NCBI GenBank assembly: GCA_024654575.1
Contig: JANLHG010000005.1
Coordinates: 1,260 to 65,259 of the forward strand
Direction: 5' to 3'
DNA: 64,000 nt
Origin: Patescibacteria group bacterium
GTDB lineage: Bacteria > Patescibacteriota > Minisyncoccia > Phycocordibacterales > PALSA-1337
The first letter of the stretch is position 1. The number at the start of each line of letters is the position of its first letter. The translations under genes and the position numbers were made by a program. The notes under the pieces are model-generated. The model saw nothing but the letters and a program-made list of their open reading frames with translations, was not told where the DNA came from and ran no database searches. Positions 1,379 to 35,780 of the stretch are shown here, in pieces.

Positions 1379-1384
1379 ATTTAC

Positions 1385-1657
1385 TTATGCTACATGAACA
1401 ATCTTTCTGACAGATCTTGAACTATCAAAATTAATCTTTCTTTTATTTTTATACTCTACCTTACCTTCTTTTAAAGCAAAAAGAGTATGGTCCTTACCTA
1501 ACCCAACATTTCTACCAGGCATAATAACAGTACCTCTTTGTCGCACCAAAACATCACCTGTTTGGGCTATTTCACCTGTAGTAACCTTAATACCTAGATA
1601 TTGAGGACCTGAATCTCTACCATTTTTAGTTGCGCCAGCCGCTTTTTTAGTTGCCAT
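1385..1657 (-). CDS. rpmA: 50S ribosomal protein L27
   Basis: MATKKAAGATKNGRDSGPQYLGIKV… matches the L27 N-terminal signature (AHKKGGGSTRNGRDS). Length is 90 aa. Confidence 0.9.
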   Translation of the reverse strand: MATKKAAGATKNGRDSGPQYLGIKVTTGEIAQTGDVLVRQRGTVIMPGRNVGLGKDHTLFALKEGKVEYKNKRKINFDSSRSVRKIVHVA

Positions 1658-1941
1658 ATAATGTTATAATGATTATTCTATGAGTATAAAAGAAATCATT
1701 GAAAAATGCAAATCTCCTAAGGTATTTATTTCAATAATTATCGTTTTAACTGCATTTGCATCCTTTGGATTAGGTCGCCTGTCAATTTTACTACACCATA
1801 AAGTACCAATTAACGTTGTAAAATAAGGATATTTTAGGATTTTTATACATCACATCTATTGACATTTAGTTTAAGAAATGCTACCATGTACATACGAGTG
1901 AGGTGAAGTAGGTAACACTATATAAACCTCACTTTTTATTT

Positions 1942-2373
1942 ATGATAGAAATAACAACAAGCGCACTGATGCTTTTCTCAGCGCTTTATGGTTCACCACA
2001 AGCGATTGAGAATTCAGCAACAATTACGTTAATTAAACAGGAGATTACTAATTCTAATCTAGAACGATATACAAGAGAATACTTCAAAGACATACCAATT
2101 CTTGCAGAAATTGCAAAATGTGAATCAAGATTCACACAATTCGATAAGAACGGAAAAGTGATACGAGGTAAAGTTAACAGGTCTGATGTTGGGGTAATGC
2201 AGATTAATGAGTATTACCATTTAGATCAATCTCAAAAACTTGACCTAAATATTCACTCAGTTGACGGAAATCTTGAATATGCAAAGTTAATCTATGATAA
2301 AAGTGGAACATCTCCATGGAATTCATCTCAAAAATGTTGGGGTAAATATTCTAAAGATCTAGCAAAGAAATAA
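1942..2373 (+). CDS. Small secreted lysozyme-like / lytic transglycosylase (SLT-like) domain protein
   Basis: An N-terminal signal-like segment is followed by a …AKCESRF… catalytic-Glu context and a GVMQINEYYH (G-L/V-MQI) motif typical of SLT/goose-type lysozyme folds. Confidence 0.45.
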   Translation: MIEITTSALMLFSALYGSPQAIENSATITLIKQEITNSNLERYTREYFKDIPILAEIAKCESRFTQFDKNGKVIRGKVNRSDVGVMQINEYYHLDQSQKLDLNIHSVDGNLEYAKLIYDKSGTSPWNSSQKCWGKYSKDLAKK

Positions 2374-2392
2374 AATGTAAAGAAAAAAATAA

Positions 2393-2430
2393 AAACAGCT
2401 TTCCGATAGGGAACAGCTGTTTTTATTTTA
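2393..2430 (+). terminator. Rho-independent terminator after the SLT-like gene
   Basis: Hairpin aacagct…agctgtt is followed by tttttatttt. Confidence 0.5.
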
Positions 2431-2464
2431 TATACTAACGTCGCACAATACTTCTTTGACGACC

Positions 2465-2668
2465 CTATAACGATTTTATAGTTATCTTATGAATTAGATC
2501 AACTGATATATCCCAAATATGTACAACTGATGTTTTTAAAAAATCCCAATTCTTCTGAGTCAATGGATTCTTAATTGTTTTTTCAATATCAAAACCATAA
2601 TAACTCAATATAAGAAGTGCAATTACTATAACAACAACCATTTTAATAAGTCCTTTTTTATAGTTCAT
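2465..2668 (-). CDS. Small hypothetical membrane protein (67 aa)
   Basis: Single hydrophobic helix (VVVIVIALLILSYYGF). Lies downstream of, and co-oriented with, the M23 peptidase gene. Confidence 0.3.
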   Translation of the reverse strand: MNYKKGLIKMVVVIVIALLILSYYGFDIEKTIKNPLTQKNWDFLKTSVVHIWDISVDLIHKITIKSL

Positions 2669-2692
2669 ACAATAGTGATTATATATTTATTT

Positions 2693-3985
2693 TTATAAAT
2701 AAGAAAGTGGATTAAGATACGCTTTTTGAGTTGCCACCGGAATACGTATGTTTTTGCAATTTATACTATTAACCAATGGTGACACTTGTATACCTTGAGT
2801 CGCGTAAACACTAAAGTGCAAATGCGCTCCAGAAGGTCCTGGTGGAAGTACGTAGCCACTATAACCACTGTAAGCGATAATATCACCTGTTTTTACTTCT
2901 TGCCCCGCACTGACTAATTGAGATGAAAGATGTGCATACACCGTTGAAAGACCATTGTTATGCTTAACAAGAATCCATCTACCATATGAATAACAGTTTG
3001 GTAATATACCAGTATCACCTATTTCTACAATTGTTCCAGATAAAACAGTTCTAACTGGAGTACCTGTAGTTGCTCGTAAATCAATACCATTATGCCCTTT
3101 TCCATTGTAAGCTTGAGGATTTTGAGTTGCGAAATTAGTGTTACCAAAATATTGAGTAATGTGAACATTATCAAGAGGCCATTGTAAAACTCCAGCTCCG
3201 GCTTTTGGTATACTATTAGGGTCAATTGTAATCCTTAATTCCTGTTCCAAATTAGCTAAATCATCTTCAAAAGCTTTCGCAAGGGCTTTCTTATTATCAA
3301 GTATTTTTTTATAATTAGCTTCTTGATTTTTTGTTTGAGCCAATAAGTCAGCTTTCTCTTTTTTTATATCTTCTACTGATTTTGTCTGTCCTTTAAGTTG
3401 ATTACTAAAGCTCAATAATTGAACTTTATTTTTTTCTGTTTTTATCTTATTTTGTTCAAGTTGAATTTTTGTATCTTCTAAGTCTTTTATGGTTTCCCTG
3501 ATAGTTGATTGGAAACGAGTTAATTTTTCTAATTCGTTCCAAAACTCCCCCAGATCTCCAAATTCAATAAGTGTCTCAATGAGCGATTTAGACTCCTCAA
3601 CATTTATTTTATAAAAAGTTTTACTTATAATTTTAATATCTTCTTCAATACGATTACTCTTATCTCCTATATCAAGTTTTAATTGCTCTATAACGATATT
3701 AGCTGTTTGTATCTTATTTTGCGTAATTTGAATATCTTTTGATAATTTCTTTCTAGTTATTTCTAATCCATCAACTGTACCCTTCAGAGTATTGGCTTGA
3801 TTTGATATTACATCAACTTGGTCTTGATACTGAGCAATTTCTTGTTTAAGTTGATTAAGTAAAACATTCTGCTCATCTATTTTTTGTCTGAGTTCTTCCG
3901 CTTTGTCGGCATAAACATTATTTCCAAAAAATAAAATAAATGCTAATAAAACTATAGTTAATATTTTCCATTTATGATAAAACAT
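2693..3985 (-). CDS. Coiled-coil murein DD-endopeptidase, M23 (LytM) family, EnvC-like
   Basis: Has an N-terminal signal/TM segment and a long coiled-coil (Q/E/K-rich heptads). The C-terminus carries the GHNGIDL and HLHFSVY (HxH) M23 metal-binding motifs. Confidence 0.85.
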   Translation of the reverse strand: MFYHKWKILTIVLLAFILFFGNNVYADKAEELRQKIDEQNVLLNQLKQEIAQYQDQVDVISNQANTLKGTVDGLEITRKKLSKDIQITQNKIQTANIVIEQLKLDIGDKSNRIEEDIKIISKTFYKINVEESKSLIETLIEFGDLGEFWNELEKLTRFQSTIRETIKDLEDTKIQLEQNKIKTEKNKVQLLSFSNQLKGQTKSVEDIKKEKADLLAQTKNQEANYKKILDNKKALAKAFEDDLANLEQELRITIDPNSIPKAGAGVLQWPLDNVHITQYFGNTNFATQNPQAYNGKGHNGIDLRATTGTPVRTVLSGTIVEIGDTGILPNCYSYGRWILVKHNNGLSTVYAHLSSQLVSAGQEVKTGDIIAYSGYSGYVLPPGPSGAHLHFSVYATQGIQVSPLVNSINCKNIRIPVATQKAYLNPLSYL

Positions 3986-5309
3986 GAATTGCTTTTGAAA
4001 TTCTTAAGATTACTTCTTCTTTTCCTAAAATATATATCAAAGAAAAAGGGTCTGGTGATTTATCTTTTCCCGATAGGGCATAGCGAACAGGCCAAAGAAC
4101 ACCCCCCTTCCCTTCTTTTTCGGCATAAGACATTATTTGATTTTTAATATCATCAACACTCCAATTCCCTATTTTATTTATAGAATCAATTACTTTTTCT
4201 AAGTGAATGACAGTTTTTTTAGAATCATTTTCATTCTTCCAAAATAATTTATCTTTTGTATATTCTGGTTCATTAAAAAAGTAATCCAACTCCCCCGCTT
4301 CTATCATTGTGTCTATGTCAGAATAAACATTGATACGGTCGAAAATAATCATTAATAACTTTTCCAAATATTCATCTGATACAACATATTTTTTCTCTAT
4401 TCTTTTTTTAATTTCTTTAAATACTATTTTTTTGTCTAACTTTTTTAGATATTCTTTATTAATCCAATTAAGTTTTTCAATATTAAAAATCGCTCCACTT
4501 TTTTGCACTTTAGCTAGATCAAATTGTGCAATAAGTTCGTCTATACTAAATATTTCTTTTGTCGTTCCGGGGTTCCATCCGAGAAAGGCAAGATAATTAA
4601 TAATTGCTTCGGGGAGATAACCCTTTTCTCTGTAATCATCAACACTCACTGCACCGTGCCTACCTGAAAGTTTAGATTTATCAGGAGCAAGAATAAGTGG
4701 TAAATGAGCATAAATAGGCGTCGGAGCACCTATCGCTTGTTGTATAAGAATTTGTCTGGGAGTGTTAGAAATGCCATCTTCTCCACGAATAATATGAGTA
4801 ATACCCATTTCAAAATCATCAATAACAACTGCTAAATGATAAATTGGTTCCTCCAAAGATTTTGCAATAACAAAATCACCAAGCTCTGTTGTATCAAACT
4901 CTATGTCACCTCGGATTAAATCTGTAAATTTTATTTTTTTATTTGAATTTTTAAAACGAATAACCTCATTTCTTTTCCCTTCCTCTACTTCTTCCTTTGA
5001 AAAATAAGCTTTGTCTTCATCAATGAGTTTCTTCAAATATGTTTTATATATATCATTACGTTGTGATTGCCAAAATGGACCATCATCATAACTAATCCCC
5101 AACCATTCTAAACAATCAAGCATATTTTTTTCATACTCCTTCTTTGATCGTTCTTTATCTGTATCTTCAAATCTAAAAACTATTTTACCTTTATTTTGTT
5201 TTGTAAAAAGGTAGTTAAAAAGAAATGTTCTTGCCCGTCCAATATGCAAAAAACCGGTAGGACTAGGTGGAAATCTGGTAATGACTTTCATACCAGTATA
5301 ATAACACAA
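3972..5309 (-). CDS. gltX: Glutamyl-tRNA synthetase (class I aaRS)
   Basis: RFPPSPTGFLHIGRARTFLFNY contains the HIGH motif in GluRS context. KLSGRHGA is a KMSKS-like motif. Length is about 440 aa. The true start is probably the MKVITRF Met. Confidence 0.9.
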   Translation of the reverse strand: MCYYTGMKVITRFPPSPTGFLHIGRARTFLFNYLFTKQNKGKIVFRFEDTDKERSKKEYEKNMLDCLEWLGISYDDGPFWQSQRNDIYKTYLKKLIDEDKAYFSKEEVEEGKRNEVIRFKNSNKKIKFTDLIRGDIEFDTTELGDFVIAKSLEEPIYHLAVVIDDFEMGITHIIRGEDGISNTPRQILIQQAIGAPTPIYAHLPLILAPDKSKLSGRHGAVSVDDYREKGYLPEAIINYLAFLGWNPGTTKEIFSIDELIAQFDLAKVQKSGAIFNIEKLNWINKEYLKKLDKKIVFKEIKKRIEKKYVVSDEYLEKLLMIIFDRINVYSDIDTMIEAGELDYFFNEPEYTKDKLFWKNENDSKKTVIHLEKVIDSINKIGNWSVDDIKNQIMSYAEKEGKGGVLWPVRYALSGKDKSPDPFSLIYILGKEEVILRISKAIHVLS

Positions 5310-5312
5310 ATA

Positions 5313-5765
5313 CTAATCAATCGCTGTAATTTTGAGTTTGAATTTTACTGTTTTATCTTGCACTTGAACTGTAATTTCATGTTCACCCACTTCTTTTATT
5401 GGTTTATCTAATTTGATGAATTCTGGAGAAATGATAAGTCGAGTTTGTTTGGTAATCTCTGGAGCAATTTCGGCACTATGAATCCCAGCAAAAAGATGGC
5501 CTTTCTCATTGGCTTTTCCAGCCATTTCTATAACAATACCATTCATATCGTTAAGATTCTTCAAAAGCAAGTCTTCTTGAATTTTTTTCTCTATATCTTC
5601 CTTTGCTTTTTCTACTGAAACCCTTTTTACAGCCTTTTCTGTAGCGATTTCAGCAAAACCCTTAGGTATAAGAAGATTTAAAGCATATCCATCAGAGATA
5701 TCTTTAACATCATATTTTTTACCTACTTTAGGTGTGTCTTTTAGTAAAATTATTTTCATACACAA
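5313..5765 (-). CDS. rplI: 50S ribosomal protein L9
   Basis: MKIILLKDTPKVGKKYDVKDISDGYALNLLIPKGFAE matches the L9 N-domain consensus. Confidence 0.85.
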   Translation of the reverse strand: MCMKIILLKDTPKVGKKYDVKDISDGYALNLLIPKGFAEIATEKAVKRVSVEKAKEDIEKKIQEDLLLKNLNDMNGIVIEMAGKANEKGHLFAGIHSAEIAPEITKQTRLIISPEFIKLDKPIKEVGEHEITVQVQDKTVKFKLKITAID

Positions 5766-5779
5766 TAAACCTTATCATT

Positions 5780-7018
5780 TCAATAATTCTTTAGCAACTC
5801 TAAAGCCTTATTCATTTGTGGGTCAATTTTCTTATCTATATCAGTCTGAGATATTTTAACTTCATAATCCGGCTTTAAACCTCCTTCAGAAATGGAATTA
5901 CCTTTTGGAGTAAGCCACCTTGCGACTGTTACTTTAAGAGACGTATCTGAAGTTATAGGAACAAGTTCTTGAACAGAACCTTTACCAAAGGTTTTCGTAC
6001 CAACTAACTTGACAATACCATGTTCTTGTAATGCACCTGCCAAAATCTCTGATGCTGAAGCCGAACCTCCATCAACTAAAATAATAAAATGTAAATTAGA
6101 AAAAACATTATATCCCCTACTTCTGTATATTTTATCATCACCGTTTTTACCAAAATCTTCAGTCACAACAATTTTTCCACTTGGTAAAAACCAACTCGCC
6201 ATGTCCACCGATGCTTCAAGATAACCTCCTGGATTACTACGAAGATCTAAAATCAGTTTTTGGGAACCTGATTCATAAAATTGTCTCAATGCATTTCTAA
6301 ACAGGTCAGGAGAATTAGCAGAAAAACTATATAATTTAATTACAAAAACACCATCTTTTCTTAATTCGGTGTCAATAGTTGGTAAATCAATAGTATCTCT
6401 AGTTATTTTGACATCAAACGGTGCTTTTATACCTTCACGAAAGACATTAAGAGTTACTATAGTCCCCTTTTTACCTCTAATGAAACTAACCGCATTATCC
6501 GTAGACATGTCAATTGTACTGGTAGCATTTATTTTAACAATTTTATCTCCCACCTTAATTCCAGCCTTTTCGGCAGGACTACCTTTCAAAGGAGCGACTA
6601 CTGTTAATATTTGGTCTTTCAGAGCAATCTCCATTCCAACTCCTTCAAAATTCCCAGCGATATCACTTTCAAATATTTTTGATTCTTTAGGAGGAAAAAA
6701 AACTGTATAAGGGTCACCCATTGAGCTAGCTAGTCCTTGCATAGCACCCCAAATTCTCTCTTGATCATTTGGAATTGGTTTTGAAGAAACATATTTTTCA
6801 GTTAAAATTGACCATTCTTTCCAGAATGGAGAAAGGTCTACAGAATTTATATTTGCAACATTTATTCGGTTTTTAGAACCAGCATAAGCACCGGCCATAA
6901 ATACCAAACCTAAAATCACCATCGCCACCACTACTGACGAAACATATTTCAAATATTTATTATTCATAAGTAAAAATATTATATCATATGCTATAATATT
7001 TTCTATTATGGTCATCAA
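5780..7018 (-). CDS. ctpA: Carboxyl-terminal processing protease (peptidase S41, CtpA/Prc-like) with PDZ domain
   Basis: Has an N-terminal TM segment and a PDZ-like region (GIKVGDKIVKIN). The S41 catalytic region is LRSNPGGYLEASVDMASWF. Confidence 0.85.
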   Translation of the reverse strand: MMTIIENIIAYDIIFLLMNNKYLKYVSSVVVAMVILGLVFMAGAYAGSKNRINVANINSVDLSPFWKEWSILTEKYVSSKPIPNDQERIWGAMQGLASSMGDPYTVFFPPKESKIFESDIAGNFEGVGMEIALKDQILTVVAPLKGSPAEKAGIKVGDKIVKINATSTIDMSTDNAVSFIRGKKGTIVTLNVFREGIKAPFDVKITRDTIDLPTIDTELRKDGVFVIKLYSFSANSPDLFRNALRQFYESGSQKLILDLRSNPGGYLEASVDMASWFLPSGKIVVTEDFGKNGDDKIYRSRGYNVFSNLHFIILVDGGSASASEILAGALQEHGIVKLVGTKTFGKGSVQELVPITSDTSLKVTVARWLTPKGNSISEGGLKPDYEVKISQTDIDKKIDPQMNKALELLKNY

Positions 7019-8345
7019 ACTTCACAACACATTGTCTGGAGAAAAAGAAGAATTTAAACCTCTCAATGAAGGAAAGGTTGGTATTTATAATTGTGGACCA
7101 ACAGTTTACGATATTGCACACATAGGAAATCTCAGAACTATGGTTTTTTATGACATTATCAGAAGAATATTTGAATATAATGAGTATAAAGTAGAACAAG
7201 TGATGAATATTACAGATGTTGATGATAAAACAATCCGTAAAAGTATCGAAGAAAAAATAACACTCACTGAACTAACAGAAAAATATGAAAAGCTTTTTTT
7301 TGAAGATATTGAAAAACTCAATATTATTAAACCACAAAAAATACTTTCTGCCAGAGCACATATGTCAGAAATTATAGAACTTATATCAACACTAATTAAA
7401 AATGGTTCAGCATACGAAGCGAGTGACGGAATCTATTTTAAAATTTCAAATTGTAAAAACTACGGATTACTAGCTAGATTAAAATTAGATAAACCGACTC
7501 AAGAAAGAATAGAAAATGATGAGTATGATAAAGAAAACCCTCGTGATTTTGCTTTATGGAAGTTTTATAAAGAAAATGACGGAGATGCAGTGTGGACCGC
7601 GCCCTTCGGGCGCGGTCGCCCTGGTTGGCATATTGAATGCTCAGCTATGGCTATAAAATCACTAGGAGACACGCTTGATATCCACGCTGGTGGAAGTGAT
7701 TTGATTTTTCCTCATCACACAAATGAAATCGCTCAGTCAGAATCAGCAACTAGAAAAACCTTTGTAAACTATTGGCTTCATGGAGGAATGATGAATGTTC
7801 AAAGTGACAAAATGGCGAAATCAAAAGGTAATTTTCTAAAATTAAAAGAGTTAATTGAAGAAAAAATATCACCCCTCGCATATCGTTATTGGCTTCTTAC
7901 TGCACATTATCGAACACAAATTAATTTTACTTTTGAAGCAGTTTCAGCATCTCAAACCGCATTAATAAACTTTTGTAATTATTTTATGGCATTTGGAGAA
8001 AAAAGTGGTGAAATTGATATAGATTACAATAATAAATTTATTGACTTCATAAATAACGATTTGGATATGCCTAAGGCAGTAGCTCTGGCTTGGGAATTGA
8101 TTAAAGATAAAAATATTTCAAACGAAAACAAAAAAGCTACTCTATTAAAATTTGACGAAGTATTCGGATTAAAATTAAAAGACCTAAAAATTCCTGATAA
8201 TAATGAAGAGATACCAGAAGAAATCAAGTTTTTGATTGAAGAAAGAGAAAATGCCCGCAAAGCTAAAGATTTCAAAAAATCCGACGCCCTAAGGAGTGAA
8301 ATAGAAGCTAGAGGGTATAAAGTCAAAGATATACCCTTATCTTAA
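7008..8345 (+). CDS. cysS: Cysteinyl-tRNA synthetase
   Basis: YNCGPTVYDIAHIGNLRT contains the HIGH region. RPGWHIECSAM is the Zn/cysteine-binding motif. KMAKSKGN is the KMSKS motif. Confidence 0.92.
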   Translation: MVIKLHNTLSGEKEEFKPLNEGKVGIYNCGPTVYDIAHIGNLRTMVFYDIIRRIFEYNEYKVEQVMNITDVDDKTIRKSIEEKITLTELTEKYEKLFFEDIEKLNIIKPQKILSARAHMSEIIELISTLIKNGSAYEASDGIYFKISNCKNYGLLARLKLDKPTQERIENDEYDKENPRDFALWKFYKENDGDAVWTAPFGRGRPGWHIECSAMAIKSLGDTLDIHAGGSDLIFPHHTNEIAQSESATRKTFVNYWLHGGMMNVQSDKMAKSKGNFLKLKELIEEKISPLAYRYWLLTAHYRTQINFTFEAVSASQTALINFCNYFMAFGEKSGEIDIDYNNKFIDFINNDLDMPKAVALAWELIKDKNISNENKKATLLKFDEVFGLKLKDLKIPDNNEEIPEEIKFLIEERENARKAKDFKKSDALRSEIEARGYKVKDIPLS

Positions 8346-8364
8346 GCCATATTATTAATTTCGC

Positions 8365-8394
8365 TTGACATAAAACTATCTTATGGTGTATAAT
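8365..8394 (+). promoter_or_regulatory. Near-consensus sigma70 promoter (TTGACA-18-TATAAT) driving the GC-rich orphan gene
   Basis: ttgaca at 8365-8370 and tataat at 8389-8394. Downstream is a roughly 110-nt leader with two hairpins (cttag…ctaag; ttcct-tg-cacc-GAAA-ggtg-aggaa) and two SD-like sites. Confidence 0.6.
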
Positions 8395-8507
8395 AAGGGG
8401 TAGATTCTTAGTCGTATGGCTAAGTCGTTCCTTGCACCGAAAGGTGAGGAATAAGGAGGTAAGTGCGTTCCTCTACTAACGCACAAGTACATTGAAAGGA
8501 GTGTTGT

Positions 8508-21682: not shown

Positions 21683-21883
21683 ATGCAAAAACTAGCCAAG
21701 TTGGTTATCGGTGATACAGTCGCTTTAATCACTCCTGCTGGAATGCCACCAGAGAGATTTCGTCATTACATCCCTTTAATGGAAGAATATGTTCAAAAAG
21801 AGGGTTTTCGAACAAAAACATATCTTTCATCTGAACAATCATCAGACCAAGAGTTGGCGGAATTATTTTATTATATAGCTTGA
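21683..21883 (+). pseudogene. N-terminal fragment of an LD-carboxypeptidase (peptidase S66, LdcA/MccF-like); truncated at 66 aa
   Basis: LVIGDTVALITPAGMPPERF matches the S66 N-terminus (L.pGD.I.ivAPSs). The ORF ends long before the catalytic Ser/His region. Confidence 0.4.
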
Positions 21884-22068: not shown

Positions 22069-22659
22069 ATGAGCAAAAACCTAAAAATAATTCCTGATTC
22101 AAAATTAGTTAAAATACCGATAAAAGATAACGGTGAACCTTTAGTTTATATAAATGATTTTGTTCCAAAAGTGGTAATCAAAATTCCTAAATACATCAAA
22201 GATGAGGGTGAGAAATTCATTAAACAATCTTCAAAGGTAAGAATCAGTGTTGCAAAAATGTTAAAAATTGCCCAAGAATTGCTTCCAGATCAATATAGAC
22301 TAAGAATAAGAAGTGGCTACAGGTCGTTAATGATTCAGAAAAAAGCTTATCAGAGAACGTTTAATAAAATGAGAAAAAATAATCCCAACTGGAGTTTAGA
22401 CAAACTAAAAGATGAAGTGAGTAAATTTGTTGCTCCTTTAGACATTGTTCCACCACATTCAACCGGCGGAGCTGTTGATATATCAATAATTGGACCAAAT
22501 GATAAACAGTTAGATATGGGGACAAGAATTGGACAAGATACTCGTTTGGAAAAAACCAGAACTGATTCTAATAAGATATCATCAATGGCCATAAAAAATA
22601 GAAAATTACTGGTGAAAATAATGTCTACAGCTGGATTCATAAATTATCCAACCGAATAG
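22069..22659 (+). CDS. D-Ala-D-Ala dipeptidase-like zinc peptidase (M15D, VanX/DdpX family)
   Basis: Contains SGYRS and HSTGGAVDISI (compare VanX SxHxxGxAxD) in a 196-aa protein. Confidence 0.65.
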   Translation: MSKNLKIIPDSKLVKIPIKDNGEPLVYINDFVPKVVIKIPKYIKDEGEKFIKQSSKVRISVAKMLKIAQELLPDQYRLRIRSGYRSLMIQKKAYQRTFNKMRKNNPNWSLDKLKDEVSKFVAPLDIVPPHSTGGAVDISIIGPNDKQLDMGTRIGQDTRLEKTRTDSNKISSMAIKNRKLLVKIMSTAGFINYPTE

Positions 22660-23501: not shown

Positions 23502-23630
23502 CAACTCTAGAAATAAAGAAAGTGTTGCACTTTTTACTCGTATCAATTACCTCAAGACTATGCTTTATTCCAAAAAATTTCCTCCAGCATCGGAAGTTAT
23601 ACAAACCCTTGCTTGTTATTTACCCAACAT

Positions 23631-24080
23631 TTAAAAGTCAATAAAAATTTCTTTTATTTTTTTCTGAGTATCTTTTAGTTGTCCATCAAAAAGCAAATAA
23701 TCTTTTAATTGCATAAAGGGTACCCACTTATAAGCTCTCACCTCACCATCTTTTGGTTTAATTTCATTGTCATCACCAACAAAACGGAAACCAAAAAAGT
23801 ATCTTTTTGATCCTTCATAGTTCTGACCGTCGCGATTCATTTTAATAACCTTAAATTTGAACTTTATTGGATTACTACTCTGACCCACAAACTGAAGAGA
23901 TTTTTTTTCTATACTCAACTCTTCATGTATCTCTCGATATACTGCATTTTCTAAAGTTTCTTCTTGTTCAACTCCGCCACCAGGAATTGCAAAATACCTA
24001 TCTTCAAAAGATTCTAAATTCACTAAAAGAAACTCTTTGTCTTTATTAATAATAAGTGCTGAAACGCCTTTTCTGTACAT
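23631..24080 (-). CDS. NUDIX hydrolase
   Basis: Contains the NUDIX box GGGVEQEETLENAVYREIHEELSI (Gx5Ex7REUxEExGU). Confidence 0.8.
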   Translation of the reverse strand: MYRKGVSALIINKDKEFLLVNLESFEDRYFAIPGGGVEQEETLENAVYREIHEELSIEKKSLQFVGQSSNPIKFKFKVIKMNRDGQNYEGSKRYFFGFRFVGDDNEIKPKDGEVRAYKWVPFMQLKDYLLFDGQLKDTQKKIKEIFIDF

Positions 24081-24089
24081 AATATATAA

Positions 24090-24794
24090 TCATTTATTTA
24101 AATCTTCATTATCTTGCATGATTTTTAACAAAAAAATTGTATCGAATTTTAATTTTGCTCGTGCTGAATCTTTTTGTGGATCAGTCAATAACTCTCCAAG
24201 ACCATCCAAGATATGCTTGTTGTCCATTTTTTCTAACATCTCAACGCACTTTACTAAAGCATCCTTAAAAGACATACCCGACCTCTCTTCAACAATCTGA
24301 CGATTGATCGGCCAGTTATTTTTGGCAAAATAATGAATATCAAAAATATCTCGGCTTGTTTTTCCAATCCTTTCATACATAGCCATAAGCTTATGCGCAA
24401 ACATATCCTCTTGGACCATTACAAGCATTGAAATACCAAGTAAAGTTTTCACCTCATATTTTGACCCAAATTGTCTGCGACTTACTTCGACTTTTATATT
24501 CTGAGCTTTGGGATCGTAAGAAATAACATTTCTTAAATTAGATTTCTGTATGTATGAATCTGTAATTTTTCCATAATTACTTATAATCTCGTTTATCTTT
24601 TCAAAAACTTCGGTTTCTTTAGTTTCATCTAATAAATCAAAATCCAAATCTACAGAATTTCTTGGTAAATCATAAAACATCATAGCCGCTGTACCACCCT
24701 TGAAACCAAGATATGACGCGAGAGAAATATCTGAATAAATATCTTTCAAAATCTGAAGCATAATATTTTTATGTTTTGAATAATCTAATGTCAT
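24090..24794 (-). CDS. abiEii: AbiEii/AbiGii-family nucleotidyltransferase toxin (DUF1814; type IV TA / abortive infection)
   Basis: FKGGTAAMMFYDLPRNSVDLDFDLL is the Pol-beta-like NTase GG[ST] motif plus acidic dyad, characteristic of AbiEii. It overlaps the upstream partner by 4 bp. Confidence 0.8.
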   Translation of the reverse strand: MTLDYSKHKNIMLQILKDIYSDISLASYLGFKGGTAAMMFYDLPRNSVDLDFDLLDETKETEVFEKINEIISNYGKITDSYIQKSNLRNVISYDPKAQNIKVEVSRRQFGSKYEVKTLLGISMLVMVQEDMFAHKLMAMYERIGKTSRDIFDIHYFAKNNWPINRQIVEERSGMSFKDALVKCVEMLEKMDNKHILDGLGELLTDPQKDSARAKLKFDTIFLLKIMQDNEDLNK

Positions 24795-25375
24795 ATAGTT
24801 TTATAATATTCATTGACTTTTTTAACCATTCTTTTATTGTGATAAATCGGTAATATCTCAAATACTTTATCCCAATTCAAATTAGTTAAGTTGTCAAAAT
24901 GATAATCCTTGCTTACATATATTCTATCCAAAAAAGCACGCTCTCGTGTAGCAATTGCATAACCATCTTTATGTTCAATACCTAAAGTATTACTTAAAAC
25001 ATAATCCTTCATCCGAACAAAAGTAATTTTTTGTTCTCTAACTATAATTTCTCGATTAACATAAGAAGAAACGAAAATATTTCCGTAATATTGAAAATTT
25101 ATACCCTCTCTTGTTAAGACAGTTTCAAAACTAATATAGGCAGGAGTATAGATTCTAGTTGCTAATTCAAATCGATTATAGTTTTTATCCTTTGCATAAA
25201 AGCCACGATGCACTCGAATTAACTTTCCAGCCACGACATACTTGTTTAATCTTCCACTGACAGTTGATTTTTTCTCTTCACTCCATAATAAAGCCACATC
25301 TTTTGTGGAAAAGATTGTTTTTGACGATCTTAATAATACCTCTAAATATTCACCTTTTGTTGGTTTTTTGTCCAC
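24791..25375 (-). CDS. abiEi: AbiEi-family antitoxin / transcriptional regulator (wHTH plus C-terminal domain)
   Basis: The gene is 194 aa, lies immediately upstream of the AbiEii gene and overlaps it. A near-palindromic operator sits upstream. Size and organisation are canonical for AbiEi. Confidence 0.6.
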   Translation of the reverse strand: MDKKPTKGEYLEVLLRSSKTIFSTKDVALLWSEEKKSTVSGRLNKYVVAGKLIRVHRGFYAKDKNYNRFELATRIYTPAYISFETVLTREGINFQYYGNIFVSSYVNREIIVREQKITFVRMKDYVLSNTLGIEHKDGYAIATRERAFLDRIYVSKDYHFDNLTNLNWDKVFEILPIYHNKRMVKKVNEYYKTI

Positions 25376-25382
25376 TTTATTA

Positions 25383-25411
25383 CTGGAAGTTACCTTAAAA
25401 GTAATCTCCAG
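25383..25411 (-). promoter_or_regulatory. Near-perfect inverted repeat upstream of abiEi; candidate autoregulatory operator
   Basis: ctggaagttacc-ttaaaa-gtaatctccag is an 11-nt arm pair with 2 mismatches. It lies 8 nt upstream of the abiEi start. Confidence 0.5.
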
Positions 25412-25456
25412 TTCATATCTTAATACTTTTGGTAAATAAGTGCAAGTGATACGAGC

Positions 25457-25480
25457 GAGCTTCGTCCAACATACGGGAGC
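25457..25480 (+). repeat. Degenerate tRNA-3'-end-like direct repeat, copy R6 (with TTCGAACCTG tail motif)
   Basis: gagcttcgtccaacatacgggagc, then …ctaggacattcgaacctgc. Confidence 0.5.
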
Positions 25481-25547
25481 AGATAAAATATCTAGGACAT
25501 TCGAACCTGCTATAGAATTTTATATTTAAATATGGTATATTTTTGGC

Positions 25548-26003
25548 ATGGAAAATTGTGTTTTTTGTAAAATCGTAAGTGGCGAACTGCCTTGCTACAA
25601 AATATGGGAGGATGAAAAGCATTTAGCTTTTCTTTCCCGCAACCCCAACACGGAAGGTTTTTCAGTTGTCATAACCAAAGAGCACTATCCGAGCTATGCA
25701 TTCGATCTTCCTGATCAGGTTTTAACCGACCTTATTCTTGTAACAAAGAAAGTCGGAAAGTTGATTGATTCTAAACTTGATGATGTCGGAAGAACCGGCA
25801 TGATCTTTGAAGGATTCGGAGTTGACCATATCCATGCCAAACTTTTCCCAATGCATGGTACAAAAGATATGGGAGAGTGGAAGTCGATGAAATCCAATGT
25901 GGACAAGTATTTTGAAATCTACGAAGGATACATCTCTTCCCATGATTATAAACCCTCAACTAACGAAGAGCTTGCGAAAATTGCTTCTAAGTTCAAGCAG
26001 TAA
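25548..26003 (+). CDS. HIT-family (histidine triad-like) hydrolase
   Basis: The N-terminus is CVFCKIVSGELPCYKIWEDEKHLAFL. The HIT-like motif is VDHIHAKLFP. Confidence 0.55.
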   Translation: MENCVFCKIVSGELPCYKIWEDEKHLAFLSRNPNTEGFSVVITKEHYPSYAFDLPDQVLTDLILVTKKVGKLIDSKLDDVGRTGMIFEGFGVDHIHAKLFPMHGTKDMGEWKSMKSNVDKYFEIYEGYISSHDYKPSTNEELAKIASKFKQ

Positions 26004-26086
26004 TTTTTATAAAACCGAAAGTCAATCTAACGAGTAGGTTTTTTTATGGTATAATTTAGTAAATTCAAATAACATAAATAAAATAT

Positions 26087-26503
26087 ATGAAAATAGAAAA
26101 AATTGTTATGTTCTTACTTCGTTTGGTTATGAGTTTTACTTTTCTTTGGGCATTTTTTGATAAGGTCTTTGGTTTAGGTTTTGCTACTACCGCAGATAAG
26201 GCATGGATTAACGGAATATCACCAACTTATGGTTTTTTGAAATTTGCATCAAAAGGTCCATTCGTTGAAATATTTCATAATCTAGCCGGTGTAGTTTTAG
26301 TTGATTGGTTATTTATGCTTGGTCTTCTTTTTGTTGGTCTTGCTCTCATTTTCAACAGATTTATAAAATTAGGATGTCTTGCTGGAATTTTAATGATGGC
26401 ACTTATGTATCTAGCTTTGCTTTTCCCAATAAACAATCCTATTATTGATGAGCATATTGTTTATATTCTAGTTCTAGCCCTTATAGCTATCAAAAAAGAA
26501 TAA
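26087..26503 (+). CDS. DoxX-like small integral membrane protein
   Basis: A 138-aa protein with four predicted TM helices. Confidence 0.4.
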   Translation: MKIEKIVMFLLRLVMSFTFLWAFFDKVFGLGFATTADKAWINGISPTYGFLKFASKGPFVEIFHNLAGVVLVDWLFMLGLLFVGLALIFNRFIKLGCLAGILMMALMYLALLFPINNPIIDEHIVYILVLALIAIKKE

Positions 26504-26506
26504 GTT

Positions 26507-27256
26507 TTACACACTGCAACTACCTGAACTCTGACGAAGTTGCGGTTGTGTGACTTGAGATACAATTTTAGCGTATCCTTGAGCACTAGAATAATTTGCG
26601 CCAAGAATTTCTTGTGGATTTACATTTTTCCATTCAACACCTTTATTTTTCATATAAGTTTTTATTACTGCGTAATTATCTGGAAACCAATTTGAATTCA
26701 TCGTTAAAGCATTTTTCCACATATCTTTTTCACTCATATCTTGTGACGCCATTAATTCAAGAAGTCCCAACATAGCCATACCATGATTACAATCAGGAAA
26801 ATGAGTAGAATTTCCACAACATGGTCGGTATATACCTAATGACATTTTATCTACTAATGCTTGTTGTTCCGGTGTTAAATTAAAAAACTTATGACGACTA
26901 TAATGATCCATCGGATTACCATGGGCTATTGTCCAACCAGCTGTAGAAGCAAAATTTTGTGCTCCTCCATATCTTTTATCCATCATCTCGCCAGATTCTA
27001 AAATTGGATTTTTACTAGCAAGACCAAGTGCCCAAAGCAAGTTGAGAATGGAATGATTATATGTAATATCAAATCTATCTGGATCAATCACTCCAACACT
27101 TATCATTTTTTCAGTAAGATCACCCCACCCTTCTATGATTTCTTCTTTAGTTTGAATATTTTGAATATTATCTGTACCTTTATAAAACATTGCTCCACCA
27201 ATAATAATTCCCGCAACAACTATAGCTAGCGGTACTTTTTTTATTTCTTTTTCCAT
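26507..27256 (-). CDS. Hypothetical membrane-anchored Cys-rich protein
   Basis: Has an N-terminal TM segment and a CCGNSTHFPDCNHG cluster. It lies in the copper/redox neighbourhood. Confidence 0.45.
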   Translation of the reverse strand: MEKEIKKVPLAIVVAGIIIGGAMFYKGTDNIQNIQTKEEIIEGWGDLTEKMISVGVIDPDRFDITYNHSILNLLWALGLASKNPILESGEMMDKRYGGAQNFASTAGWTIAHGNPMDHYSRHKFFNLTPEQQALVDKMSLGIYRPCCGNSTHFPDCNHGMAMLGLLELMASQDMSEKDMWKNALTMNSNWFPDNYAVIKTYMKNKGVEWKNVNPQEILGANYSSAQGYAKIVSQVTQPQLRQSSGSCSV

Positions 27257-27262
27257 ATATTT

Positions 27263-27745
27263 TTATTCTTTACAACAATCAGCTAGCTTGGCGACTAAAT
27301 CCTCAAGCCGATTGGTGTCTTTAGATATTTTATTAATTTGTTTAACATTCACCAATTTAATCTTTAACGCCCAAAAAATAGAATAAATCTTATAAGCATC
27401 ATTAAACATTTCTTTGGCTTCTTTCTTTTTTCCTTCGGAATGCAATTTATTTCCAACCTCAATAAATCGCATTGTGGTAGAAAGGAGATGTTTTGAAGCA
27501 CACCATGTTTCTCCTTCGTGGTTCGGTATAAGTTTAATTAATAGTTCTTTACGCATCTTTCTTATCTCATCAGATGTATCTAGGTATTCATCCTTACCAG
27601 TTTTCATAGAAGTAAAAAAGAAATGTTCTTCAAGCGAAATCAGATTCATCACCGCCAAACTTAAATCCTCAGTAATTGATAGGTCAACACCACCTTCTTT
27701 TTTAGCTAATTCAATTTTCGTCATAAACTCTTCAAATGTTTTCAT
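27263..27745 (-). CDS. Hypothetical protein (160 aa)
   Basis: Intact ORF with no recognisable motif. The C-terminus ends in CC. Confidence 0.4.
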   Translation of the reverse strand: MKTFEEFMTKIELAKKEGGVDLSITEDLSLAVMNLISLEEHFFFTSMKTGKDEYLDTSDEIRKMRKELLIKLIPNHEGETWCASKHLLSTTMRFIEVGNKLHSEGKKKEAKEMFNDAYKIYSIFWALKIKLVNVKQINKISKDTNRLEDLVAKLADCCKE

Positions 27746-27754
27746 ATTAATAAA

Positions 27755-28534
27755 TTAAATGAATAAAACTAAAATACCAATAATAACCATAGCGATACCT
27801 ACCCATAGGTGCACATCTTTCATATTCGCGTGTTTCCATTCTTTAACTTTTTCAATAAAAGCTGGATTAGAAGCAATCCAAAGAGTTGCTATAAGTGGAG
27901 TGATAAGAATGATGTTATAGAGAATAAGATAACCAAAACCACTAAAATATGTAGAATAATCATGAAGTAATCCAATGACCATTAAATACGGACCTCCCAT
28001 ACACGGAAATTGACAAAGGCCGACAAGTAAACCAAGAAAAAAAGCAGACGGAAGTGATACGATATTAATGAGTTTACCAATAGAACGATGTGCCACATCA
28101 GGGATTTTGAGCTTAATAGGAAACTTAGGAAAGAGAGCATTAAGTAAATTAAGTAATCCAAAAATAATCAACATACTTGCACCGAGCTTACCCATAAAAT
28201 GGGGAGTGTTGAAAATATGAAGTACTTTTAAGAGACCGATGCCTATAGTGAAATAAGCAAAGAAAATACCAGCAATATATAGACCGCCAATTTGAAGAAT
28301 TTTCTTACGCGTCAACTGTAAGCCAAACAAAAATGCAATAGTAATGAGTAGAATAGAAAAAGAACAAGGATGAACACTATCAAGAAGTGCAGAAAAAAAG
28401 ACCAGCGGTAAAAGCCATACACCTTGATCACTTACATTCCAAAGAAAGGTAGAAAAATTAGAGCTATATTTTAAGACTACAATTCCCAGAATTACTACAA
28501 GCACTACTACTATGCTGATGATATTTTTTTTCAT
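27755..28534 (-). CDS. CcdA/DsbD-like thiol-disulfide transporter family membrane protein
   Basis: Polytopic membrane protein with conserved Cys inside TM helices (VHPCSFSIL and CQFPCMGG). It is paired with a DUF1573 protein. Confidence 0.45.
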   Translation of the reverse strand: MKKNIISIVVVLVVILGIVVLKYSSNFSTFLWNVSDQGVWLLPLVFFSALLDSVHPCSFSILLITIAFLFGLQLTRKKILQIGGLYIAGIFFAYFTIGIGLLKVLHIFNTPHFMGKLGASMLIIFGLLNLLNALFPKFPIKLKIPDVAHRSIGKLINIVSLPSAFFLGLLVGLCQFPCMGGPYLMVIGLLHDYSTYFSGFGYLILYNIILITPLIATLWIASNPAFIEKVKEWKHANMKDVHLWVGIAMVIIGILVLFI

Positions 28535-29040: not shown

Positions 29041-29099
29041 TTTGAAAATAATTACAAATTAATAATTAGAAATTACTAATAAAGGTAAAACATTTACTA

Positions 29100-33813: not shown

Positions 33814-34950
33814 TCAACCAACAAGTTTCCATAGAAGCTCAGTTCCTCCTTTGAAGACTTGGACTTCTCCGACTTTCTGCGGAACGACAAGCGCCCCGCG
33901 TTCGATCGTCATCATCTCCGAGCTCACTTCCATGCCATAAAGCGCGAGGAAGTTTTCGGAAAGGAACGGACCGAGATGTTCGAGTGCGTTGTCCTGGTCG
34001 AAGGTCATCGTGTAGAGCTCAACGGCCGAGGGAGCGGTGAAGATGCCAGCCGCACAGCCATAGCAGCGAGACTTTGCACTTTCATCGTGAGGAGCGGAAT
34101 CCGTTCCTGCTCCGAAGCGACGATTACCCGAAGTCACATACTGCCGGACTTTTGCACGATGCGTTTCGCGCTTCGGCACAGGCTTGCAGTAGTGGCCAGG
34201 ATTCATCCCACCCCAGAACATGGCGTTGCGATTAATCATCAGATGATGAGCAGTCACAGTCGCATGGATATCGTGATCGACTTCTGCGACGAAGTCGGCC
34301 GCTCGTCCATCGGTGAGATGTTCGAAGACCACCGGCAATCCTGGAAAGGACTTGAGGATGGGCTTGAGGTCGCGGTCCACGGAAACGCTCTCGCGATCGA
34401 ATTCGTCGACATCTTCCTCGACTGCTTCGAAGTGTCCAAGCAATGGGATTTTGTGTTTCTCCATCACCTCGAACACCGGATAGCGACCAAGAAGATTCTT
34501 CACGCCGTGCGCCGAGCCAGTGGTGCCACCCTGGCCTTTTTGATTGGCCATGTAGAGCTTCACCGCTCGCCAAACACCTTCTTCGAAACCGCGCACGACT
34601 TCTTCAGGATCGATATGATCCGTCAGATACAGCGTCATGCAAGGCACGAAGTCGTAATCCTTCTTCCAATACCATTCTTGTCCTTTCGGAGCATTAGTAT
34701 TGAAGCGTAAACTCGTCATAACTTGTTCGATCTCTTTACGGTAATCTTTCGCTTTTTCAATCGTCGTTACCGGGTCAGCAAGGTTTGGCATGATAATCGC
34801 CCCCGTTGCATGCTGTTTGAGTGTACACGGAAGAACGGTCTTGAGCATATCACCACTTCGAAGGTGAAGATGACGGTCAAACCATCGAGGTATTGTTACC
34901 GAGTTTTCTTTCATGAGTTTTCCTTTTTGATAAACGATGTGGGTTTCCAC
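33814..34950 (-). CDS. pyrC: Dihydroorotase, type II (E. coli PyrC-like); GC-rich foreign composition
   Basis: FDRHLHLRSGDMLKTVLP, AIIMPNLADPVTT, CMTLYLTDHIDPEEVVRGFEEGV, PLLGHFE, VVFEHLT, GTDSAPH and CYGCAAGIFTAPSA align motif-by-motif to E. coli PyrC. DNA is about 55% GC. Confidence 0.9.
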   Translation of the reverse strand: METHIVYQKGKLMKENSVTIPRWFDRHLHLRSGDMLKTVLPCTLKQHATGAIIMPNLADPVTTIEKAKDYRKEIEQVMTSLRFNTNAPKGQEWYWKKDYDFVPCMTLYLTDHIDPEEVVRGFEEGVWRAVKLYMANQKGQGGTTGSAHGVKNLLGRYPVFEVMEKHKIPLLGHFEAVEEDVDEFDRESVSVDRDLKPILKSFPGLPVVFEHLTDGRAADFVAEVDHDIHATVTAHHLMINRNAMFWGGMNPGHYCKPVPKRETHRAKVRQYVTSGNRRFGAGTDSAPHDESAKSRCYGCAAGIFTAPSAVELYTMTFDQDNALEHLGPFLSENFLALYGMEVSSEMMTIERGALVVPQKVGEVQVFKGGTELLWKLVG

Positions 34951-35780
34951 GGAGTCCGCAGATGAATTGCACCGAAGCCGATCGCTTTCGCGCCGAGCCT
35001 CCTAAGCTTTTCCATGTCTTCGAATTCCATGATACTTGGACCGATCACAGGAAGCGATCCTTGTTTAGCGAGAGCTTCGACTGCCGCCCAGTTGTGTTTC
35101 TGTGCCGGTTTGCCGGAGACGCCTCCGCCTCCACCACCGACTTGTTTTTCGAGCTTCGCTAAAGGGGTCTGCCCGCTGTTAGTAAAGACCGTCTTCCACG
35201 GCACGCTGTTGAGGGAAACCGCTTCCGCGATTCCGACAAGTCCGCGTGCAATAGTGAGATAGTCCTGATCAGCCGAGACTTTGACGATTACGGGGTGACG
35301 CGAAGCGCGTTTGACCGCCTTCACACTATTCACCACCATTTCTGCCTGTTCGATTGCATGGCCAGTATTCGGACACGAGACGTTGACTTCAAGCGCAACG
35401 ATATCGAAGCGATTGAGCATCTCCGCCATTTCCACCAGTTCCTTTTCATCGCCGAAAATTGATCCGGCTGTTGGGAACTTTTTGAAATCGAGTTTGGGAC
35501 CGACTTCTCGGCACCACCACTCGACACCAGGATTAGTGAGCCCAACTTTATTGACCGCTCCGCCTGGAATCAGGCGAACGCAGGTCCAAGGCTTCCACCA
35601 TCGTAGGTTTCCGATACGCGGGTTGCGCGTCAGAGATTTGATGACTACAGTGAAGAGTTCGGGCTTGATGAGACCGAGCCACACCAGTGGCCGTTCCCAA
35701 GGCCAGCCCTTGCCATCAAAGGCAAGAGCGCCGCTTGCAACCATGTATTTGAACGCATGTCCGTTTGATAATGTGATCAT
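34911..35780 (-). CDS. pyrD: Dihydroorotate dehydrogenase, class 1 (Cys active site, PyrD 1A-like); GC-rich foreign composition
   Basis: Contains NKVGLTNPGVEW, ALEVNVSCPNTGH (NxSCPN), GGGGGVSGKP and a C-terminal GFGAIHL. It overlaps pyrC by 40 nt. Confidence 0.85.
   Translation of the reverse strand: MITLSNGHAFKYMVASGALAFDGKGWPWERPLVWLGLIKPELFTVVIKSLTRNPRIGNLRWWKPWTCVRLIPGGAVNKVGLTNPGVEWWCREVGPKLDFKKFPTAGSIFGDEKELVEMAEMLNRFDIVALEVNVSCPNTGHAIEQAEMVVNSVKAVKRASRHPVIVKVSADQDYLTIARGLVGIAEAVSLNSVPWKTVFTNSGQTPLAKLEKQVGGGGGGVSGKPAQKHNWAAVEALAKQGSLPVIGPSIMEFEDMEKLRRLGAKAIGFGAIHLRTPWKPTSFIKKENS

Follow-up and report, generated by a model that had tools for sequence, protein, structure and literature searches.

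Introduction

AbiE modules have been characterised in Streptococcus agalactiae and Lactococcus lactis (Dy et al., 2014, PMC3985639; Beck et al., 2020, PMC7319586; Arrowsmith et al., 2026, preprint 10.64898/2026.01.19.700257, the sources of the comparisons made here). The S. agalactiae operator consists of two 23-bp repeats with 3 bp between them, and the occupancy of such half-sites and the repression of the promoter were shown experimentally for the S. agalactiae and Mycobacterium tuberculosis homologs (PMC3985639, PMC7319586). Characterised relatives of the toxin, AbiEii, add pyrimidines to tRNAs and stop translation, and are neutralised by antitoxin-induced auto-phosphorylation of the Ser or Thr in the motif R-x-[S/T]-x-D (10.64898/2026.01.19.700257; PMC11375011). 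Here we describe an AbiE locus in a 64,000-nt stretch of DNA (the window) from an uncultured Patescibacteria lineage, a host unlike S. agalactiae and L. lactis (Patescibacteria group bacterium, GCA_024654575.1, contig JANLHG010000005.1, positions 1,260–65,259 of the forward strand; GC content of ∼32%). The locus is very probably a two-gene AbiE module with its own promoter and a putative autorepression operator, next to which a NUDIX hydrolase gene lies by chance.

As in S. agalactiae and L. lactis, an antitoxin of ∼195 residues with a winged helix-turn-helix (wHTH) domain, AbiEi, is encoded upstream of AbiEii, a DUF1814 nucleotidyltransferase (NTase). The similarity to those systems is, however, very low, and phmmer and hmmsearch reached no solved AbiEi. 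The Rv2827c-Rv2826c and MenAT systems of M. tuberculosis resemble the locus in their DUF1814 NTase toxin and in their antitoxin, a two-domain wHTH protein that autoregulates via inverted repeats, and MenT toxins have an active-site Ser/Thr phospho-acceptor (S78 in MenT3, T39 in MenT1) of the kind predicted here. Rv2827c differs in its four 23-bp repeats, its negative cooperativity and its larger C-terminal domain, compared to a single palindrome in the window. A more distant parallel is provided by the C proteins and C-boxes of restriction-modification systems, in which it is well established (e.g., PMC2175313) that a small HTH autoregulator heads a potentially lethal module and acts on a palindromic operator by its own start. 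C-protein families are also known to diversify their operator specificity, which limits cross-talk between co-resident systems. Their fold family and effector are unrelated to those of AbiE and C proteins also activate, and the analogy is drawn for specificity diversification only.

Gene content and annotation

The three genes discussed here are the following.

24791–25375, minus strand: abiEi, antitoxin and putative autorepressor (194 aa, GTG start; assigned from PADLOC, the NCBI name and its position 5' of abiEii)
24090–24794, minus strand: abiEii, DUF1814 NTase toxin (234 aa; assigned from PF08843 and PADLOC AbiEii)
23631–24080, minus strand: NUDIX hydrolase gene, a neighbour outside the module (149 aa; Pfam NUDIX, 1.3e-20)

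All three open reading frames (ORFs) exist as a first-pass annotation, made from the sequence, had described them, including the 194-aa partner upstream of the toxin. The two abi genes overlap by 4 bp (ATGA), as in S. agalactiae, and the stop codon of the toxin is separated from the ATG of the NUDIX gene by 9 nt. The assignment of the pair, also proposed in the first pass, was borne out by profile searches: AbiEii matched Pfam PF08843 with 61.3 bits (E = 1.7e-16), well above the curated cut-off of 22.5, and PADLOC AbiEii (PDLC02324) with an E-value of 2.5e-78 over profile positions 3–226 of 231, while residues 9–190 of AbiEi matched PADLOC AbiEi (PDLC02255) with an E-value of 3.3e-53 over positions 3–183 of 186. 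None of the NCBIfam models matched AbiEii. Identical proteins from a Patescibacteria metagenome-assembled genome are named 'AbiEii/AbiGii toxin family protein', 'AbiEi family antitoxin domain-containing protein' and 'NUDIX domain-containing protein' at NCBI, and AbiE pairs in Patescibacteria have been mentioned earlier (10.1101/2024.03.08.584096). The window pair is thus an ordinary, publicly annotated member of the AbiEi/AbiEii toxin-antitoxin family. The label 'type IV' that it was first given may be outdated, since the S. agalactiae system was reclassified as type VII in a 2026 preprint (10.64898/2026.01.19.700257).

For comparison, 80 related loci were taken from species-representative genomes, and neighbouring genes were counted over 72 independent ones among them. 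AbiEi lies directly 5' of AbiEii in essentially all 80 loci. In the window itself, we found neither a second AbiE pair nor extra copies of the operator beyond chance expectation.

A conserved palindrome between the predicted promoter and abiEi

The region upstream of abiEi contains the following predicted elements.

25440–25445, minus strand: predicted −35 element TTGCAC, 17 nt upstream of the −10 element, as read from the sequence
25417–25422, minus strand: predicted −10 element TAAGAT, 4 nt before the operator and common to the closest relative (L006)
25382–25412, no strand assigned: putative 31-bp palindromic operator, on the minus strand ACTGGAGATTACTTT-T-AAGGTAACTTCCAGT; a gap of 6 nt separates it from the abiEi start

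The first-pass annotation had placed an inverted repeat with 11-nt arms 8 nt upstream of abiEi and linked it to autorepression by AbiEi. The inverted repeat is present, but the arms as quoted are complementary at only 9 of 11 positions, and the distance to the start codon is 6 nt rather than 8. We describe it instead as an odd palindrome of 15+1+15 nt in which the outer arms (ACTGGA/TCCAGT) and the centre (TTTAA) are conserved and the inner arms (GATTACT/GGTAACT) vary. At the corresponding position, ∼60 related loci have a 31-nt palindrome that mostly ends 6 nt before the ATG, with 57 distinct sequences and the consensus ACTGGAA-N5-CTTtAAG-N5-TTCCAGT, and it is because of this recurrence that we judge the palindrome to be real. 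Across the loci, 78% of the arm positions form Watson–Crick pairs. Several pair types occur at positions 8–13, so that the inner arms vary yet stay complementary; at position 10, for example, TA, AT, CG and GC pairs are all found. In four loci (L014, L068, L037 and L008) the palindrome is extended to arms of 19–23 nt (22+3+22 bp) that run over the −10 box and the start codon, and these versions come close to the 23+3+23 layout of S. agalactiae.

The consensus promoter scan of the window did not flag the abiE promoter, whose −35 element (TTGCAC) matches TTGACA at 3 of 6 positions, and the promoter is therefore predicted from conservation across loci. Of 59 distinct upstream regions from related loci, 58 have a TAnnnT hexamer that ends 1–6 nt short of the palindrome, and 46 have TTG at −35 spacing. 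Since the palindrome directly follows the −10 box, it spans the predicted transcription start. In common with the promoter repeats of S. agalactiae and L. lactis, it is an inverted repeat whose outermost bases are best conserved. It differs from them in its compact core of 31 bp (ACTGGAA-N17-TTCCAGT here versus TGTTGCTTTTA-N27-TAAAAGCAACA) and in its placement past the −10 element and over the predicted start, with no overlap of the −35 and −10 elements and no Shine–Dalgarno (SD) motif. A start codon without an SD motif, as in abiEi, is usual in this genome, where 12 of 67 long ORFs in the window have an SD-like motif (background ∼10%).

A second inverted repeat, ATTCACT(A/G)G-N13-C(T/A)AGTGAAT, was seen in about nine loci (L005, L008, L012, L016, L017, L023, L024, L029 and L032) but not in the window. 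It lies ∼95–65 nt 5' of the abiEi start codon, immediately upstream of the −35 element, and may serve as an insulating terminator, mark the boundary of a cassette or provide a further binding site.

Co-variation of the AbiEi recognition helix with the palindrome

In the AlphaFold2 (AF2) model of AbiEi, helices at residues 10–15, 24–30 and 36–48 are followed by a beta-hairpin wing at residues 52–61, with a predicted local distance difference test (pLDDT) score of ∼80–88, and the N-terminal domain is, as modelled, a canonical wHTH. When the loci were sorted by the inner arm of the palindrome, the AbiEi residues just before a conserved RL-KY motif were sorted along with them. These residues form the N-terminal end of helix 3 in the model. 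The N-terminal end of helix 3 is the position at which wHTH proteins usually read bases. The codons concerned and the matched classes are as follows.

25232–25273, minus strand: codons for AbiEi residues 35–48, the recognition helix alpha3, with hypervariable residues 35–41 (KKSTVSG); delimited by the AF2 helix at 36–48, entropy and the operator correlation
AbiEi VVTD: operator inner arm AAGGGAC
AbiEi VIKK: operator inner arm (A/G)GTC(G/T)CC
AbiEi A(A/V)RV: operator inner arm GTTAG
AbiEi IISI: operator inner arm GT(A/T)TACC
AbiEi TVSG: operator inner arm GATTAC(C/T) (the window and L006)

Residues 31–42 are the most variable of AbiEi, with an entropy of 1.71 bits compared to 0.69 elsewhere. 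Distances between operators were correlated with distances over AbiEi residues 33–44 (r = 0.81), compared to r = 0.33 over the remainder of the protein and 0.10 over the toxin. With the remaining parts of the module controlled for, the partial correlation was 0.77 (permutation p ≤ 5e-4), and a sliding window along the protein gave a sharp peak. Matched classes recur across backbone clades, RV with GTTAG in six and TD with AGGG in three, and a single clade with at most 22% divergence holds at least six matched classes.

We found no earlier description of such a helix–operator specificity series in the literature; together with the compact 31-bp operator and its placement against a start codon that lacks an SD motif, it sets the locus apart from the characterised AbiE systems. 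Tentatively, the subfamily may be regarded as a set of naturally diversified, orthogonal repressor–operator pairs in which the helix patch around residues 35–41 and the inner arms have been switched together many times, a view we consider quite possible though short of probable. Switching could have occurred by exchange of a 5' cassette of ∼200 bp.

DNA operator or RNA hairpin

We favour the palindrome as a double-stranded DNA operator of two half-sites for autorepression by AbiEi, on grounds that are set out here together with those for an RNA element. With the predicted −10 box on one side and the start codon on the other, the palindrome would be mostly transcribed, and it ends 6 nt before a start codon without an SD motif. 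It folds with −11.5 kcal/mol in the window and with up to −24.5 kcal/mol in relatives, and the inner stem varies while its complementarity is kept. It could thus act mainly as a hairpin in the 5' untranslated region that controls translation or mRNA stability. This is unlikely, and we rejected it as the main role of the element on the following evidence. Mismatches across loci show no wobble bias, with 31 G.T and 26 A.C mismatches against 110 others of the transversion type. No difference in folding was seen between the strands, the means for 51 distinct elements being −10.25 kcal/mol (sense) and −10.05 kcal/mol (antisense; p = 0.37). Several loci extend the symmetry into the −10 box, which is not transcribed, and the inner arms co-vary not only with each other but also with the recognition helix of the protein. 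No Rfam family matched the palindrome, for which one sub-threshold miRNA match was obtained, and the missing SD motif is normal here. The absence of wobble bias, the equal folding of the strands, the co-variation of the arms, their co-variation with the recognition helix and the symmetry that reaches the −10 box are the reasons for which we prefer the DNA operator, and the conserved position and the two kinds of co-variation agree with the role that the first pass had assigned to the palindrome; binding and repression are predicted from these patterns.

With a DNA operator, the following sequence of events may be proposed. A sigma-70-like promoter (TTGCAC-17 nt-TAAGAT) would drive abiEi and abiEii as a single transcript. 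By analogy with the characterised homologs, two AbiEi molecules would fill the two half-sites, and initiation would be blocked. The variable inner arm, GATTAC[C/T] in the window, would be read by residues ∼35–41, at the N-terminal end of the recognition helix, and the conserved outer ACTGGA by the invariant parts of the wHTH.

The toxin and its predicted neutralisation

NTase motifs I and II of AbiEii have the form hG[G/S] ... R-x-x-x-D-h-D (PMC3985639), and in S. agalactiae they are followed by motif III, K-L-x-A-a-x-x-R, with K173 and R180 seven residues apart, and by motif IV with D192. The motif FKGGTAAMMFYDLPRNSVDLDFD, quoted in the first pass as that of an AbiEii/DUF1814 NTase, is found in the window protein, whose family is confirmed by the Pfam match. 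Conservation was scored over 44 family members. Invariant or at least 90% conserved are G33-G34, R45, S47, D49, D51, D53, E103, K135, R142, D149 and D152. The Pol-beta NTase motif I is F31-K32-G33-G34, of which both glycines are invariant, and motif II is R45-N-S47-V-D49-L-D51, with R45, S47 and D49 invariant and D51 at least 90% conserved. In motif III, K135-L-M-A-M-Y-E-R142, residues K135, L136, A138 and R142 are invariant; its 'aromatic' position is a Met, with a Tyr one residue on. Motif III is followed by an invariant R148-D149-x-x-D152, which aligns with the RDLFD of the DUF1814 protein 4o8s. The putative counterpart of S. agalactiae D192 (motif IV) was matched by pattern and not by an alignment to S. 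agalactiae AbiEii. Of the motifs known from S. agalactiae and L. lactis, the toxin has GG, R-x-[S/T]-x-D-h-D and K...R, with a C-terminal Asp as the candidate for motif IV, but with 234 aa it is shorter than S. agalactiae AbiEii, for which residue numbers of 220 and above are cited (10.64898/2026.01.19.700257).

The closest solved structures are 4o8s and 4ok0, both uncharacterised DUF1814 proteins, with E-values of ∼1e-7, and the only MenT-type PDB entry matched by sequence was 6y56, marginally (E = 0.39). Homologs of AbiEii are numerous (more than 7,800 at E ≤ 1e-10), and the best 120 all have at least 79% identity and come from many Patescibacteria lineages. In plasmid and phage collections, we found relatives of the subfamily at no more than 31% identity; there is thus no evidence that it travels on known plasmids or phages, where its relatives are distant only.

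Judged by its sequence, AbiEii appears to be an intact NTase toxin. If it acts as its homologs S. agalactiae AbiEii and the MenT toxins do, it would add nucleotides to the 3' ends of tRNAs and halt translation. The Ser/Thr phospho-acceptor position, two residues before the first catalytic Asp, is S47 (R45-x-S47-x-D49) and is invariant in the family; its equivalence to T65 of AbiEii rests on the motif pattern (R63, T65, D67 and D69; PMC3985639 and preprint 10.64898/2026.01.19.700257). AbiEi's C-terminal domain would neutralise the toxin, for which induced auto-phosphorylation of Ser47 in R-x-[S/T]-x-D-h-D is one possible route.

The pair might alternatively be a decaying remnant that has lost its toxicity or its regulation, and a few features would fit such a fate: abiEi starts with GTG where all relatives have ATG at the equivalent position, the C-terminal tail of AbiEi is shorter (194 versus ∼200 aa), the palindrome is less perfect than that of many relatives, and the surroundings are not a defence island. 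Decay is nevertheless very unlikely. Both ORFs are of full length and keep every residue that is invariant in the family, including the catalytic motifs; the 194-aa form of AbiEi with overlapping genes also occurs in L008, L027, L029, L031 and L066; and GTG is a legitimate start codon.

Boundaries of the module

Homology to the window in blastn comparisons starts at ∼25412, the outer edge of the palindrome, and ends at ∼24092–24123, at the stop codon of the toxin. In L006 the DNA homology starts at 25451 and includes the promoter. The flanks are unrelated from the first base past the stop, and no shared terminal motif or recombination site was found at the 3' junction of the module. When the genes that come first downstream of the module were clustered, the 72 loci gave 63 unrelated clusters; these genes are a mix of restriction-modification, ATPase/helicase and housekeeping genes. 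Since conservation extends from the palindrome as far as the toxin stop and the sequence outside is divergent, we conclude that the module is a two-gene cassette of ∼1.35 kb with its own promoter, situated in a variable region.

The upstream neighbours in the window, encoding HIT and DoxX proteins, and the racemase gene were considered as partners, and none recurs beside AbiE in the related loci, bar one weak racemase-like match in L053. Positions 1–7044 of L006 are syntenic with 24066–28534 of the window: three upstream genes are homologous, with ∼77% DNA identity (window 26507–28534). Between these genes and abiE, the window has the HIT (25548–26003) and DoxX (26087–26503) genes and L006 has one ORF of 123 aa. 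A P-loop kinase-like gene takes the place of the NUDIX gene in L006, where HIT, DoxX and NUDIX are absent, and an ORF that by eye resembles an IS30-family transposase lies 1.4 kb beyond it. The region around abiE looks like a variable hot spot. L001, L003, L004 and L005 have a common ORF start, ATGAATCCAGTTGCAAACCAAAA (MNPVANQ...), 4 nt past the AbiEii stop (∼4701). This ORF has 238 aa in L001, with a DUF7695 domain at its end, and in L003–L005 a different larger gene is found some 150–190 nt further on.

The NUDIX neighbour

The first-pass annotation had proposed the NUDIX enzyme as a possible third component of the system, since NUDIX enzymes can reverse nucleotide modifications. Such a component might, for example, modulate toxicity by hydrolysing nucleotide substrates or by undoing a modification. 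The arrangement itself is as it was described: the gene is co-oriented with the toxin gene, the gap is 9 nt, and a consensus scan found no terminator-like site between them. The first non-coding terminator-like site downstream of the abiE promoter follows the NUDIX gene, the other site on the minus strand (25308–25294) being inside abiEi.

23581–23596, minus strand: weak terminator-like hairpin with a T-run, 35 nt past the NUDIX stop (6-pair stem with 3 GC pairs; a consensus match only)

An unrelated NUDIX gene also lies directly downstream of AbiE in L053, and in L059 a NUDIX fusion is encoded two genes downstream. The distribution of the gene speaks strongly against a three-gene unit. A homolog of the window NUDIX was found downstream of AbiE in none of the 72 related loci, and L053 is the single locus among the 72 with any NUDIX gene in that position, compared to ∼0.5 expected by chance; Pfam-confirmed NUDIX genes lie within 4 kb of AbiE in 4 of 80 loci. 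The related loci have 4 NUDIX boxes in 559 kb and the window has 1 in 64 kb, with a background of ∼1 per 125 kb. Orthologs of the window NUDIX are numerous in Patescibacteria (70–86% identity), and AbiE is missing from the four independent contexts of orthologs with 79–82% identity, where the gene follows closely on an ATP-grasp gene or other genes. The homology of the module does not extend past the toxin stop, and syntenic L006 keeps AbiE with a different downstream gene. The 9-nt gap is uninformative, because 61% of co-oriented neighbours in the window are separated by at most 20 nt, with many 4-nt overlaps. NUDIX enzymes cleave pyrophosphate linkages and cannot remove nucleotides added to the 3' end of tRNA. 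A third component is thus highly improbable, and the NUDIX gene is a conserved gene of the lineage and not a component of AbiE. Its co-transcription by read-through from the abiE promoter is plausible in this genome, as a result of packing rather than as part of a functional unit.

With respect to the identity of the enzyme, the generic domain call alone is secure (74.3 bits against PF00293). RppH was rejected, since the best model, the RppH-like NCBIfam NF001938, gave 55.7 bits, far below its cut-off of 116. The PADLOC candidate PDC-S07, a weak match that might have favoured a role in the system, was likewise set aside: it covers only the Nudix-box region, residues 6–71 (profile positions 9–76 of 135, E = 3.3e-11). 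At L085/L086, positions 1–8450, four NUDIX-domain genes are found in a stretch of 8 kb, one of them a NUDIX-methyltransferase fusion. Such a local density of NUDIX genes in these genomes raises the chance of incidental adjacency.

Evidence to be set against an autoregulated AbiE module

A number of observations weigh against the reading of the locus as an AbiE module with an autorepression operator. For AbiEi, the Pfam AbiEi_4 match (residues 14–61, E = 6.7e-5, 23.4 bits) is below the cut-off of 25, the NCBIfam equivalog TAA_AbiEi gave 30.8 bits against a cut-off of 150, and solved AbiEi structures were not reached by phmmer, by profile searches of the PDB or by Foldseek. The AF2 model has a mean pLDDT of 61 and falls below 50 for residues 62–128, so that the N-terminal domain alone is confident; Foldseek searches of the PDB with this model gave no match at E ≤ 0.001, the local matches being wHTH regulators. 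The C-terminal region is covered by the full-length PADLOC profile, yet it is modelled with low confidence and has no significant fold match.

With respect to the palindrome, the promoter start, operator binding and autorepression are all computational for this subfamily, and the window element is imperfect, with 12 of 15 Watson–Crick pairs (80%). Taken alone, the window holds six palindromes of at least 12/15 in 64 kb compared to 3.0 ± 2.0 in Markov-1 random sequences, which is not above chance. The five other 31-nt odd palindromes of this quality start at 29047, 33760, 51066, 54648 and 56152, the last being the best (14/15). That the palindrome is a functionless chance match in the window, as these numbers and its three mismatches would allow, is scarcely credible, given that the 31-nt element recurs, at an unchanged distance from the start codon, in ∼60 loci with otherwise unrelated flanks and that L006, the closest relative, has the same element class and the same helix residues, TVSG.

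The operator and the helix codons are ∼160 bp apart and one recombination tract could move both, so that physical linkage, and not selection, could account for part of the correlation. By itself, linkage explains neither the joint change of the two arms nor the focus of variability in the recognition helix. Finally, S. agalactiae AbiE gave no protection against phages in E. coli (10.64898/2026.01.19.700257), and a defence role of the window module therefore cannot be assumed; the module may serve to defend against phages, may stabilise DNA or may be simply selfish.

Other features of the window

An island of ∼1.95 kb at 33814–35780 on the minus strand has a GC content of 49–56% and contains two adjacent genes, a 378-aa ORF without a Pfam match and a 289-aa protein that resembles dihydroorotate dehydrogenase (PF01180, 7e-19). 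The island has no Rfam match, and is therefore not rRNA; its composition suggests recent horizontal acquisition from a high-GC donor. On the plus strand, a 66-aa ORF (21683–21883) is followed by a 196-aa M15/VanX-like peptidase (22069–22659), beside an Asp/Glu racemase. The Pfam match of the peptidase stops at profile position 178 of 199, at the last residue of the protein, and the two ORFs may be truncated or fragmented genes for a cell-wall peptidase.

Discussion

The window pair by itself adds little, as it is an annotated AbiE pair and its proposed NUDIX partner fails; it is the comparative result that is worth keeping. AbiE is among the commonest accessory modules of the Patescibacteria, whose genomes are small and which are mostly uncultured, and it is seen here as a sharply bounded unit of 1.35 kb. 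In such compact genomes, functional linkage cannot be concluded from tight spacing and a shared orientation. The co-variation of helix and operator provides in-silico support for autoregulation in organisms where experiments are hard, and the loci offer natural, probably orthogonal wHTH–operator pairs that can be tested in E. coli. If the repressor–operator pairs have indeed been diversified in this manner, co-resident or incoming copies of AbiE would be kept from cross-repression, and the subfamily would provide a readable code for the recognition of DNA by wHTH proteins.

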